This document shows positions 46,961 to 63,250 of a stretch of DNA of 64,000 nucleotides, one piece after another (position 1 is the stretch's first letter; every line of letters begins with the position of its first letter). The position numbers and the translations under genes are program-made. The notes beneath the pieces were generated by a model. It was given only the letters and a program-made list of their open reading frames with translations, ran no database searches and was not told the origin of the DNA. Source of the DNA: Nitrosopumilaceae archaeon (GTDB lineage: Archaea > Thermoproteota > Nitrososphaeria > Nitrososphaerales > Nitrosopumilaceae); NCBI GenBank assembly GCA_965208905.1, contig OZ242365.1:1408001-1472000 (forward strand), given 5' to 3'.

Positions 46961-47263
46961 GAGAGAATTACATAAAGTTAACATTGTCCTAACGTATATG
47001 TCGGCCTTGTCGCCACCATCCAATTTTTCGGTAGTGATCAAATCTTCCTCCACATGTTGTATGGCATGATTCTCAATCCTCGCCATACCACATCGCTCCA
47101 TGCCTGCACACCGAATATTGAACGGAGCTGACCCTGTCCTCGGCGCCTGCAAACAATGACTGCGTGTTTACAAGCACATCCATGGGAAGCATTGAGCGGC
47201 CAGTTCCACCAAAATGTTCACCGCGGTTGCCTAGCAGTCCGTACCGTCTGGTATGTAATTTCC

Positions 47264-48902
47264 GGGAATTATATACAAAAGTACAGCAGTCTTAACCGCC
47301 TACTTTTCGTTGGCTTTCACCATTCAGGGTGCGTGTGTTTGGCATGCGCTTTGGAAGCGCGGTCTTGACTACCTGCCAGTCTCCTACAACCGGTGGTGGC
47401 GTGCGGTTGCGTAGGCTTATTCGGTCCCTCAAGTCCGTCCCGGACTTGATGCATAAACGACTTGCCTTTTGGGCGCGTCTTGAGTTTGGTTTTATGTAAT
47501 CATAATTGTTGTTATAGTTGTTGTCTGGACTGTACATGATGTTGAATGCGCCGTTATAGTCGGCATGACATACAGTGCCGCAGTTCCGACACTTGAACTT
47601 TCTATCATGGTTCCACCTCTCATGTACAATTTCATTATTGTGCCAAATCTTGAATCCACCGTAGCGTTCGGTGTCCTTACTACAACATGCGCCACACCGT
47701 TTGGACGTATTGTAGGGTTTAACCTCTCTGATTTCCGTATTATGCTCAGGGGCTTTCTTTGTACACCAATCACGGACTTCACCGGCCTTACTCTCTTTTA
47801 GTGTGCGGTTCTTGCCTTTGGCGCAGTTGCCCCCCTTGCGGGTAAGATTCACCAAGTTGAGGTTCTCAAATTTTACCAAATCGCAGTCCACGCACAGTTC
47901 CTTGCAAAAGTGTCTGTACTTATTCAACTGCCAGTTGTATAGCGTTTTGCGCTGCCGTTTCATGCTGTCATTTATCTTATTCCATCTGTTGCTGTTATGT
48001 GTACATCTGTCACGTTCGGACTGGAGTTTTCTAATGTGCTTGCCTATTTCATCATTGTACAATTTAAGAAGGCGTGTAGTACCGTCCGACAGTGCCACAT
48101 ATGCTGTCAACTTGCCTATGTCAACACCCGCCGTCAACCCTGTTATCTTCCTGTCCGGGATGTACTTTTGTATTGTAAGGTGTAACTCAAACTGGCGGTG
48201 ACCGCGCCGTCTATCCGCATCACTCGTTATGTCAACAATCTTGTGTGACACTACGGTTTTGATGTTGGGTAGCCGCCCCTTCGTGATGCTGAACTGTGTG
48301 TCTGACTTGGGAAATGTGACCGTGTTGTGTTTGATTCGCTTTGGTGCACCAAGGAAGAATATCGGATATGTTTTACCGTCTTTGAGATGCGTACAGTCCT
48401 TCATTTCAATACCTGCCAGGATTGCACCGCGAATTAAGTGTAGTGGTGCGCATTCCTTGGGGTCGGTATTATCCCATTCTGCCATCATGCTTTTGGCAAC
48501 CGTAACGCATGTCAATGCGCTTCGGGGATACGGACTAGGACTACTGCTGGCAGTGAACTGCACGTTCAAGTTACGACACATAACACCTAGTTCAACCCAC
48601 ATACGGCTTTCGGCCTCCAGACTTTCAACATATGAGGTGATTATACTATTTGTCTTTAGGCGGTATTTGCGGGTTCTATAGATTATACTCTTCTTGGTCT
48701 GCATATCACATATTATGATATTTCAGATATAAAGTTACATACCTCATATTTACTATATGATATGTATAGTACAGTCCCGACCACATGCCAGTCTGTCAAA
48801 TTACGGCGCTGTTATACGGCATGCCAAACACACGCACCCTGAATGGCGAAAACCAACGAAAAATAGGCGGTTAAGCCTACTGTACTTTTGTAAGTAATTC
48901 CC
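47264..48902. mobile_element. TnpB element flanked by 84-bp imperfect inverted repeats (47264-47347 / 48819-48902)
   Basis: 77/84 identity by eye; both copies terminate in ...TAATTCCC. Confidence 0.75.
47292..48704 (-). CDS. tnpB: TnpB-like RNA-guided endonuclease
   Basis: RuvC-I GVDIG, RuvC-II FENL, Zn finger TSKRCGAC...FKCRNCG, RuvC-III HADYNGAFNI; no transposase adjacent. Confidence 0.85.
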   Translation of the reverse strand: MQTKKSIIYRTRKYRLKTNSIITSYVESLEAESRMWVELGVMCRNLNVQFTASSSPSPYPRSALTCVTVAKSMMAEWDNTDPKECAPLHLIRGAILAGIEMKDCTHLKDGKTYPIFFLGAPKRIKHNTVTFPKSDTQFSITKGRLPNIKTVVSHKIVDITSDADRRRGHRQFELHLTIQKYIPDRKITGLTAGVDIGKLTAYVALSDGTTRLLKLYNDEIGKHIRKLQSERDRCTHNSNRWNKINDSMKRQRKTLYNWQLNKYRHFCKELCVDCDLVKFENLNLVNLTRKGGNCAKGKNRTLKESKAGEVRDWCTKKAPEHNTEIREVKPYNTSKRCGACCSKDTERYGGFKIWHNNEIVHERWNHDRKFKCRNCGTVCHADYNGAFNIMYSPDNNYNNNYDYIKPNSRRAQKASRLCIKSGTDLRDRISLRNRTPPPVVGDWQVVKTALPKRMPNTRTLNGESQRKVGG

Positions 48903-49120
48903 TATGTGGTCTGGCCAGCATATCGGCGAAATGAATAGAGAATTTGTATATTTATATGTGAGATTATGCCATTAGCATTATGAAGAAATTTAAGCATACA
49001 AATGATGAGTTGGAACAAGCAAGGCTTGAGGCCAAGGGCGGCGATGACCCCACTGTACGGCAAGGCCAAAAGAAGAGTAAATATGGCCAAAGTATAATAG
49101 AATTTTAACTTTTTTCATTA

Positions 49121-49393
49121 TTATTTAAATGGGTCCAGCTGAATGCGATCGTCTGGGTCTGCGCGGATACAGTCGGTACCAACAGGATGTAGTTTTACAA
49201 ATTTTATCACACCCTTTGGTATTTTGTTATGTAGTTGTAAGTATGTGACCTTTTTGGAGACATCATCTCTATGTGTAGCACATGTCACCCCCACCATGTA
49301 TTCATCATTATCACTTGTTACAGATACCACAAACTCGGGCGGGTTGGAGCACCGCCGCTTGTTATGTATGATGGCGCATCTATCGGGAAGCAT
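49121..49393 (-). CDS. Hypothetical protein (Cys-containing)
   Basis: MLPDRC...CSNPPEFVV...EYMVGVTC..H...VGTDC. Confidence 0.7.
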   Translation of the reverse strand: MLPDRCAIIHNKRRCSNPPEFVVSVTSDNDEYMVGVTCATHRDDVSKKVTYLQLHNKIPKGVIKFVKLHPVGTDCIRADPDDRIQLDPFK

Positions 49394-61300: not shown

Positions 61301-61338
61301 ACAATTTTCACCTATTTATGGCTCTTTTAAAGCCTTGC

Positions 61339-62776
61339 GGGGCTTATCCCTGTAACTGTAACCTAAAAACAGCCAGACTTGTAAACCCATATCATGAGTT
61401 AGGTTTTTAAAGTACTATAGCGTATAGAACGGCATGTATAGATCACATAGCGTCCGCATAGACCTGACACGCTCTCAGGCGCGTCACATATCCAAAATAC
61501 GGAACTCACAGCGGTTCGTGTATAATTGGGCCGTAGAGAAGCTGCTGGCCGACCCCACACTCACTACATATGATCTCTCCAGGGAGTTTACCAAACTTCG
61601 CAGATGTACACCGCACCTACAGGAAGTAGAGCGCATATACCAAAATACGGCCATCCAGCAGGCCCGCACTGCTGCGGATGTCTCGAACAAATACGGCAAC
61701 GGCAAACTAGGTTTCCGCTCCAAAAAGCTTGACAATACAAAGGCAGTATCATGTGATGTACAGCCTGTATATGTGGACAACAGACACGCGTCATTGCCGG
61801 GCCTTGGTGTTGTTGAGTTGCCTGAGGAGCAGCCATACCAATTTCCACACAACTGGCTGTATGGCTCAAGGTCTTTCCGTTTGGTATGTATAACACCAAA
61901 GTCGTGGGGGCACGTCAAGTCATGTGACCATATCTACCGGTTGCACATAACATATGACGTACCTACACCCGAACGGCGCGCCAAGACCGGTGTTGTTGCC
62001 GGCATAGATAGGGGGATAACAAATCCAACGGTTGTCTGTAAGACAGACCATAACGCCTCAAATATAACATCATACGATACAGCAACCGCATTCCGCACTA
62101 ACCGTACATGGAATGATGATGCGCGTCGTACCATATCACACCGCAACAAGCACTCCCGTACAACATACAAGATGAAACGCAAGCGAGAAAAGTACAATCG
62201 TGGTAATGCGAATGACCGCGAGTATGCAGAATGGTTATTGGCCAAGAAGATATGCGAGGGTGTGGATGTGATATATGTCGAGCAGCTCCACCTTGAGGCC
62301 ATGAGCAGGCGCGGTGGTAGGCACAAAAAGGGCATGAATCGTGGTATGAGGTTCATTCGGCATTATGCAATACTGCGAAAGATACGCATTGTCGCAGAGC
62401 GGTTGGGCATCCGTGTAGTAGAGGTGAATCCAAAACACACGAGTCAGGAGTGCAGTATATGCGGCTACACAAACAAGGAGAATCGAAATGGGGAGACATT
62501 CAAGTGTCTCAAATGTGACCACATGGCAAACGCCGACGGCAATGCGTCGGTGAATATAATTCAACGGGGGACCGGTATGAAGGTTCCCGCGGGGGAAGGA
62601 ATAGCCCTCGAAAGGCGTGAAATGGGCCGGACCCGGAAGCCACCTGTTTGTGCAGTTCCGGACGCCAAGCGGCGGCGTGAGAATCAAGCGTGCAATCGAC
62701 CCAAAACATCAAGCGTCATGAAGCACCTGGGAATGTACGCGTATGTTACGTATGTTCAGTAAGGTGGATAATTCCC
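61339..62776 (+). mobile_element. Non-autonomous TnpB element with terminal inverted repeats and 8-bp target-site duplication
   Basis: AGCCTTGC at 61331-61338 and 62777-62784; ends GGGGCTTATCC / GGATAATTCCC. Confidence 0.85.
61434..62762 (+). CDS. tnpB: TnpB RNA-guided endonuclease
   Basis: RFVYNWA N-terminus, GIDRG, VEQL, VNPKHTSQECSICG, FKCLKC, NADGNASVNI. Confidence 0.93.
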   Translation: MYRSHSVRIDLTRSQARHISKIRNSQRFVYNWAVEKLLADPTLTTYDLSREFTKLRRCTPHLQEVERIYQNTAIQQARTAADVSNKYGNGKLGFRSKKLDNTKAVSCDVQPVYVDNRHASLPGLGVVELPEEQPYQFPHNWLYGSRSFRLVCITPKSWGHVKSCDHIYRLHITYDVPTPERRAKTGVVAGIDRGITNPTVVCKTDHNASNITSYDTATAFRTNRTWNDDARRTISHRNKHSRTTYKMKRKREKYNRGNANDREYAEWLLAKKICEGVDVIYVEQLHLEAMSRRGGRHKKGMNRGMRFIRHYAILRKIRIVAERLGIRVVEVNPKHTSQECSICGYTNKENRNGETFKCLKCDHMANADGNASVNIIQRGTGMKVPAGEGIALERREMGRTRKPPVCAVPDAKRRRENQACNRPKTSSVMKHLGMYAYVTYVQ

Positions 62777-63250
62777 AGCCTTGCCATGAAAGTATTGTGG
62801 GTTTTGCAGAATGGTATCGTGTGGAGTATAGTGTTTTTTTATCTCTTGGTGCGTACACAATATTATATGTTGTAAGGTGCCAGAAGGTCCAACTTCAGAT
62901 GTGTTATACGGTTGGCGTTACAGACACAAAATAGATGACATATACAATATATTGTCAAAAATTATCTGTGAATAGCATCTTTTATTCCACACCAAATAGT
63001 GTCCAAAAACATGAAAGTTAATTTTTGGGGCTGGGAAGATACGGTGACCTGGTGTATACTGGAAAGTTTGTGACTCGGAGTGGAAGGGAGGTCGTTATAC
63101 ATTAGGAGTGTGGAGTCATATATGAGGTCGCATACTTACATTTCCAGCCTAGGTGTTTTAACTGAATGGGAGCCATACACTGAACAGTTCAGCCTTGACA
63201 GAACCATTCAATCAAATAAAATTTTTAAAAAAGCGCATCATAATATAACT

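Follow-up and report, generated by a model that had tools for sequence, protein, structure and literature searches.

We analysed a 64,000-nucleotide stretch from a sponge-associated member of the Nitrosopumilaceae (GenBank assembly GCA_965208905.1, contig OZ242365.1, positions 1,408,001 to 1,472,000 of the forward strand; hereafter the window), and in particular a minus-strand tnpB gene that lies between two long inverted repeats at 47264-48902. The source genome, G000, is a single contig of 2.21 Mb with a completeness of 99.6%. An earlier, sequence-only reading of the window had pointed out that the last 84 bp of this tnpB element recur in inverted orientation upstream of the gene, and had offered two explanations: long terminal inverted repeats (TIRs) built from the 3' part of the omegaRNA, or a second, truncated RNA scaffold that gives one nuclease two guides. 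The features of the locus, including copies of the target-site duplications (TSDs), are as follows.

47264-48902, minus strand: the whole mobile unit, 1639 bp, very probably a non-autonomous IS1595-type TIR element with tnpB (identical second copy, empty sites)
47292-48704, minus strand: tnpB, encoding 470 aa in which RuvC D/E/D motifs and a zinc finger are predicted (Pfam Cas12f1-like_TNB, E 1.3e-14)
48727-48733, minus strand: conserved TATA-like box (TTTATAT) in front of tnpB, about 26 nt from its ATG, on the inner side of the left arm
47264-47363, no strand assigned: right-end arm, which spans the terminal TIR, the 3' portion of the omegaRNA-like region and the last 72 nt of tnpB
48803-48902, no strand assigned: left-end arm, which repeats the final 84-100 nt of the right end in inverted orientation
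47264-47452, minus strand: predicted omegaRNA scaffold, about 190 nt or longer, whose end coincides with that of the transposon (alignment of six sequences, fold)
47244-47263, minus strand: predicted guide, consisting of a TSD copy (47256-47263, TAATTTCC on the plus strand) and flank, as expected from TnpB biology
48903-48910, no strand assigned: one copy of the site-2 TSD in degenerate form, TATGTGGT (in the related genome G083, where this second insertion site is empty, the 8-mer is AATTTGGT)

The tnpB product matched Pfam Cas12f1-like_TNB above the cut-off and the NCBIfam guided_TnpB model at E 7.1e-25, with 88.1 bits, under that model's cut-off of 100. An alignment with the TnpB of PDB entry 9nzp_A (E 9.4e-5) retained the motifs GVDIG, KFENLN and HADYNGAFNI. 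On the strength of the predicted RuvC triad and zinc-finger/TNB domain, we class the protein as a divergent TnpB. Its gene ends 28 nt from the element end. Upstream, the TATA-like box is the putative tnpB promoter; the motif ACAACTTTATATC is kept in four of six aligned 5' regions, carries one change in the window copy (GTAACTTTATATC) and is not kept at one further locus, L025. Since the box lies on the inner side of the left arm, the arm would not be part of the tnpB mRNA. The sole metatranscriptome run used, X20, contributed a single 172-nt RNA contig at 48017-48188, within tnpB, which carries no strand or end information and covers neither arm.

The arms of the inverted repeat (47264-47363 and 48803-48902) are 100 nt long and 86% complementary, and 77 of 84 positions in their core are identical, as had been reported. 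A 28-nt word from the arms occurs at just two places in the window (0 expected, 100 shuffles). Homology between the arms stops at TAATTCCC in both, the point at which the earlier reading had placed it, and the same 8-mer ends the tnpB element at 61.3 kb (62769-62776). Taken bare, TAATTCCC is not significant in the window, with five occurrences against 2.35 expected and five or more in 10 of 100 shuffles. The terminal 22 nt or so of the left arm are the TIR common to a whole superfamily of elements described below. We found no stand-alone 84-bp units in G000, where full-length matches are restricted to the four arms of two element copies. A direct repeat (D1, 47362-47382 and 48774-48794) was not conserved in five other 5' regions and is treated here as chance or lineage-specific. 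The sequence-only reading had also proposed an autoregulatory partial match between ATGTGGTC in the second flank and 48779-48786. The match exists, but other strains read T at 48906 (G>T) and five relatives do not conserve the internal partner, so we rejected it as an autoregulatory feature.

The whole unit occurs twice in G000, at 1455264-1456902 (copy 1, in the window) and 2049469-2051107 (copy 2), in direct orientation and 594 kb apart. The two copies are 100% identical with the same two boundaries, and the shared sequence runs over 47264-48904 and no further. Copy 1 is flanked as TAATTTCC / element / TATGTGGT and copy 2 as AATTGGGT / element / TAATTTCC. In G083, which belongs to the same genus as G000, both insertion sites are empty and lie on one chromosome, with a single TAATTTCC at site 1 (GGTATG-TAATTTCC-CTATGAG) and a single AATTTGGT at site 2 (CATAATTTGGTCTTGCC). 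Two metagenome runs gave further states of these sites: in a contig from X6, position 47263 runs directly into the right flank of copy 2, leaving site 1 empty with a single TAATTTCC, and in X8 the element is present at site 2, between AATTTGGT and TATTTGGT. Because the empty sites in G083 and in the X6 contig hold one copy of the 8-mer, an 8-bp duplication was made at each insertion. The runs holding the window element are mostly sponge or marine metagenomes.

These sites account for two peculiarities of the flanks that had been noted earlier. The statement that the element has no TSD is true of the window copy, but TAATTTCC recurs to the right of copy 2 and is single in the empty site; the window copy lacks a TSD because the two identical copies recombined and exchanged flanks. 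Recombination between the repeats would suffice to explain the swap. In G083 a single chromosome carries the two sites, both unoccupied, so G000 differs from it by at least two exchanges between repeats; for the same reason a two-replicon cointegrate was dropped as the cause. The first flank had also been read as another element end placed head-to-head. The resemblance is real (GTATGTAATTTCC vs GTATGTAATTCCC), but the empty sites show a different origin, namely a target duplication at a target that resembled a TIR end before insertion. The two site-2 duplications (48903-48910, TATGTGGT; G000 2049461-2049468, AATTGGGT) differ from AATTTGGT at three of 16 positions while the elements are identical, and X8 holds an intermediate state of this duplication.

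The terminus GGGAATTATA...TATAATTCCC is common to 25 paired elements in G000 (TIR matching at 17/30 or more positions and TSD at 7/8 or more). There are 75 TNB-domain hits in this 2.2-Mb genome; 20 of the 74 examined lie in TIR elements, 13 of them with 8/8 TSDs. The superfamily comprises three TnpB clades (A, about 451 aa; B, 442-456 aa, including the gene at 61.3 kb; C, 470-487 aa, including the window gene), miniature inverted-repeat transposable elements (MITEs) of 45-641 bp, and four elements of 2.1-2.8 kb. The last encode proteins of 313-320 aa that match DDE_Tnp_IS1595 at E about 1e-40 and carry the IS1595 zinc ribbon; the NCBIfam IS1595 transposase model gave 176 bits against a cut-off of 75. 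Two of these transposase-bearing elements are identical 2131-bp copies with different TSDs, and GGGAATTATA(TA) is common to all four and the window element. We saw no element that combines the transposase with tnpB. The TIR 15-mer is present in nine of ten genomes of the genus, and clade C TnpB in four of 151 genomes of the family, all within the same genus. Scans of metagenomes with the TIR pattern returned one lone end (L054, an individual element locus like the other L-numbers), whose partner was not found. As a side observation, two of the transposase-bearing elements (G000 1043578-1046414 and 1770047-1772736) also carry a fused N6/N4 DNA methylase-HNH endonuclease gene, at L002 253-1617 and L003 1187-2227.

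An 8-bp duplication is usual on either side of IS1595-family elements (PMC8101967), and the same length was found at the empty sites and in the 13 TnpB elements with 8/8 TSDs. G000 has no hits to Y1_Tnp and none to the Resolvase family of serine recombinases. The termini it shares, the length of its TSD and the lack of any TnpA suggest that the window element is moved by an IS1595 transposase. We hold it very probable that the unit is a non-autonomous IS1595-type transposon with tnpB as cargo, and that its inverted duplicate represents long TIRs, not a second guide-RNA gene.

The right end holds a conserved, structured region that resembles an omegaRNA. Across the right ends of six clade C elements, a block conserved much more strongly than coding requires extends at least 190 nt inward. 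The consensus fold of these six sequences has 42 predicted pairs, five with compensatory changes, four of which fall in one hairpin (alignment A2, columns 119-139), and the terminal UCCC of the right end has a predicted pairing partner in a GGGA segment. For the 189-nt right end of the window element, the fold had a z-score of -2.55. The hairpins named in the sequence-only reading are indeed predicted in the right arm, and the first covaries among relatives by our reading of the alignment. We read this conserved block as the putative omegaRNA scaffold. No Rfam match was found in 47000-49200 at E up to 1, and a degenerate pattern of the right-end block had no matches in the metagenome scans. 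The predicted guide at 47244-47263 has a single occurrence in G000 at up to three mismatches in 20, and the suggested search for further genomic matches of both putative guides yielded none in G000 at that threshold.

The left arm differs from the right end in these respects. It is without the upstream stems, the GGGA partner and about half of the conserved scaffold. Among long left arms, two are available, those of the window element and of L010, a relative in another genome with the same architecture and a left arm of about 97 nt. Read outward, their folds had z-scores of -0.06 (window) and 0.01 (L010), and read in the sense direction -0.42 and +0.41, so that on either strand they fold no better than shuffles; the right arms in the sense direction gave -1.63 and -2.41. 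L025 and L027 have a shorter, partial left-arm extension, and three of the six clade C left ends (L006, L009 and L020) have short TIRs of about 24-26 nt. Since L006 and L009, with TIRs of about 26 nt, have perfect 8/8 TSDs, the long left arm is unnecessary for movement. Comparison with L010 also bears on the history of the arms. Within an element the two arms are 91.7% (window) and 84.6% (L010) identical, and the same arm compared between the two elements is 80.0% (right ends) or 71.4% (left ends) identical, these L010-window comparisons carrying six or eight gap columns. Both L010 arms are 90 nt long, against 84 nt in the window, and by our reading of the alignment the 6-nt surplus is one extra block common to both arms. 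The likeness of the arms within each element, together with this shared block, points to concerted evolution, most simply by gene conversion between the inverted arms.

We propose that the element has kept the TIRs and 8-bp TSDs of IS1595 and has tnpB and an omegaRNA in place of the transposase. It would most likely be moved in trans by the 313-320-aa IS1595-family transposases of the 2.1-2.8-kb elements, which have the same termini. The right end would then have a dual role: the transposase would act on it, and a scaffold of 190 nt or more would have its 3' end there, so that the duplicated 8 bp would form the beginning of the guide and the flank its continuation. In this sub-lineage, the final 84-100 nt of the right end would have been copied in inverted orientation to the left end, giving unusually long TIRs; gene conversion probably keeps the two arms of each element alike. 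The first of the two explanations offered earlier, long TIRs made from the 3' part of the omegaRNA, is supported: the arms end a TIR/TSD transposon, and the left arm inverts the last 84-100 nt of its right end.

The other explanation, a two-guide locus, would have the left arm transcribed outward on the plus strand as a short omegaRNA-like scaffold with the left flank as its guide. The long TIR would then serve as a two-ended homing device, in which the full omegaRNA and a minimal outward scaffold of 84-100 nt direct TnpB to cut both strands of the empty site, from its two sides; an oriented transposon-associated motif (TAM) next to the variable 8-bp duplication would serve to recognise that site. 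Several features speak for it. The left arm retains the most conserved single-stranded block (28 of 28 positions as in the right arm) and ends at exactly the same terminus, L010 has kept an arm of comparable length, an AT-rich stretch upstream of the arm could hold a promoter, and reconstructed site 1 has a G outside the 8-bp duplication on both strands. That second-side G, however, is present at one of three sites (site 1, but not site 2 or L010), and no conserved outward promoter was seen in the alignment of 5' regions. The conserved RNA of the right end is 190 nt long or more, and the left arm lacks its GGGA segment and about half of the scaffold; the left arm folds no better than shuffles on both strands, unlike the right arms; and the arm is absent in the three sister elements with short TIRs. 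A truncated scaffold giving a second guide is therefore not supported, and most likely no RNA gene resides in the left arm. We regard two-ended homing as very unlikely; if true, this would be the first natural two-guide TnpB locus and a case of RNA-guided homing inside a DDE (IS1595) transposon.

A function of the long left arm other than guiding is also unlikely, if somewhat less so. The arm could offer extra transposase-binding sites that aid synapsis, or act within a read-through transcript as an antisense partner that damps TnpB through the 3' part of the omegaRNA. Homogenisation of the arms within each element would fit such a role, as would the position of the arm upstream of the tnpB TATA box, by which it would be contained in read-through RNA only; by our reading, two of the seven differences between the arms, both G to A changes within stems, would preserve pairing as G-U on the sense but not the outward strand. 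Against this, sister elements without the arm transposed cleanly, the left arm in the sense direction folds no better than shuffles, and gene conversion between inverted repeats requires no selection. The condition under which the sequence-only reading would have been refuted, that the upstream copy is a decaying MITE or omegaRNA fragment that landed beside tnpB by chance, draws plausibility from a genome rich in related MITEs of 45-641 bp. It proved wrong on the evidence of the mobile unit itself. The outer edge of the arm is the edge of the unit in two identical copies and at the empty sites, which contradict a chance fragment; stand-alone 84-bp units are absent from G000; and L010 has the identical architecture. 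We consider a chance origin exceedingly improbable.

Some observations weigh against our preferred account, in which an IS1595-type transposon carries tnpB between long TIRs. TIR sharing with the transposase-bearing elements, whose particular IS1595 transposases would act on the window element, is confined to the first 10-13 nt. The presence of a long arm in L010 and of shorter ones in L025 and L027 means that persistence and homogenisation may reflect selection for some function. The comparisons draw on six right ends and two long left arms; the tnpB of L010 has two TAG stops, which makes it a poor witness either way; and the single X20 contig within tnpB leaves room for outward transcription of the left arm.

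The TnpB elements have an oriented, clade-specific base next to their insertion sites. We oriented elements from G000, G065, G083 and G100 by their tnpB gene and scored the base just before the left-end duplication. This base (-1) was G in 19 of 23 TnpB elements, compared with a mirrored C at +1 of the right end in 3 of 23 (Fisher p 4e-6). The preference was carried by clades A and C (18/20, binomial p 3e-10), whereas clade B had G at -1 in one of seven (p 6e-4 vs A and C; one of three from the count and none of four read by eye). Clade A flanks read A(-4) T(-3) N G(-1). Both reconstructed sites of the window element, which stand outside the 23-element count, also have G at -1 (ATAG and CCAG), and this G is already present in the empty sites. 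The position fits a TAM because the guide would begin with the 8-bp duplication. Against a TAM, four of eight elements not classed as TnpB-bearing have G or C on one side by eye (four of the eight, those in G000, were checked by Pfam), and the difference between TnpB elements and these in flank G/C is not significant (p 0.15). An asymmetric target preference of the transposases is a possible source of the flank base; on balance we lean, by a small margin, towards the oriented -1 base being the TAM of TnpB. If so, RNA-guided retention or homing would be compatible with a DDE transposase and a variable TSD, and the locus would offer a compact archaeal TnpB/omegaRNA pair with a predicted TAM. A second TnpB element family in G000 (about 1515 and 1616 bp, e.g. 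1677879-1679392 and 329442-331057), with unrelated TIRs (GGTTCCTCCCGCAA...) and 8-bp duplications, has its own oriented flank pattern, T at -2 in 13/13 and A at -1 in 10/13; we identified no partner transposase for it, though an rve-type DDE gene adjoins one copy, at 805876-808440.

TnpB is usually described as a partner of IS605 or IS607 transposases, with scarless excision. The window element resembles the IS1341 group of IS200/IS605 in its solo tnpB, predicted overlapping 3' RNA and many copies per genome. Members of IS200/IS605 have asymmetric hairpin ends and a Y1 TnpA. The window element differs in having a 100-nt TIR and 8-bp TSDs in a genome without Y1 TnpA, and we do not place it there, as IS200/IS605 elements have no TIRs and no TSDs (PMC13565253). 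Nor does it belong with IS607, whose TnpA is a serine recombinase and which has no TIR or TSD: TIR and TSD are present here, and G000 has no Resolvase. With IS1595 insertion sequences it shares the 8-bp TSDs and autonomous partners with DDE_Tnp_IS1595 and an N-terminal zinc ribbon; it differs from them in lacking a transposase gene, in carrying tnpB and in TIRs extended to 84-100 nt.

TnpBs borne by DDE transposons are already published, and the main texts do not name IS1595 as a carrier. Altae-Tran et al. (2023, PMC10691335) described six DDE-associated TnpB branches (DDE-1 to DDE-6) with inverted terminal repeats, and solo TnpBs with the same ends that are probably moved in trans. The elements here are alike in that tnpB lies inside inverted-terminal-repeat elements with its 3' end within 250 bp of the element end, and in that the ends of solo TnpB elements match those of transposase-bearing ones, which suggests trans mobilisation. 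The main text of that paper names IS630 only and IS1595 not once, and a 2026 review names ISL2, IS630 and IS1031 as DDE carriers of TnpB (PMC13565253). Judged by title or abstract, the literature on TnpB with IS1595, on TnpB in Nitrosopumil- taxa and on IS1595 in Thaumarchaeota gave no direct precedent, with IS1595 unnamed in the main texts and a supplementary listing possible. A further parallel comes from Fanzor/TnpB carried by TIR/TSD transposons of eukaryotes (Yoon et al. 2023, PMC10711439), with a nuclease that rides a cut-and-paste element and a guide RNA, predicted in our case, whose 3' end overlaps the TIR recognised by the transposase. The scaffold of Fanzor elements is said to incorporate a TSD that is short and fixed, whereas the TSD here is 8 bp and variable, would supply the first 8 nt of the guide, and belongs to an archaeal host. 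Because TnpB is rare in DDE transposons, it has been argued that they gain little from homing (PMC13565253). This one genome, which lacks TnpA, holds at least 20 TnpBs in IS1595-type TIR/TSD elements that have moved recently, as identical copies and empty sites in relatives attest, and the apparent second guide of the window element is most simply a long TIR.

Several related elements deserve mention. The tnpB element at 61.3 kb in the window is an intact 1438-bp TIR element at 61339-62776 (GGGGCTTATCC... / ...GGATAATTCCC), with a perfect 8-bp TSD, AGCCTTGC, at 61331-61338 and 62777-62784. It belongs to a four-copy subfamily of clade B with A, not G, at -1. We rejected the possibility that it is 5'-truncated, as the 1438-bp subfamily has its own left end and a perfect TSD. 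A further TnpB group in G000 (about 1310 bp, e.g. 1947321-1948627) has no TIR that we could see; it has an IS605-like look, but the genome holds no transposase for it. At L004 (G000 1972621-1975198), a clade A TnpB element is split by an IS630-like (DDE_3) transposase gene, its outer 8-bp duplication intact. In G083, the 5' region of a clade C element harbours a nested 214-bp MITE of the same TIR superfamily (L009 1180-1393), which is flanked by an 8-bp duplication of its own.

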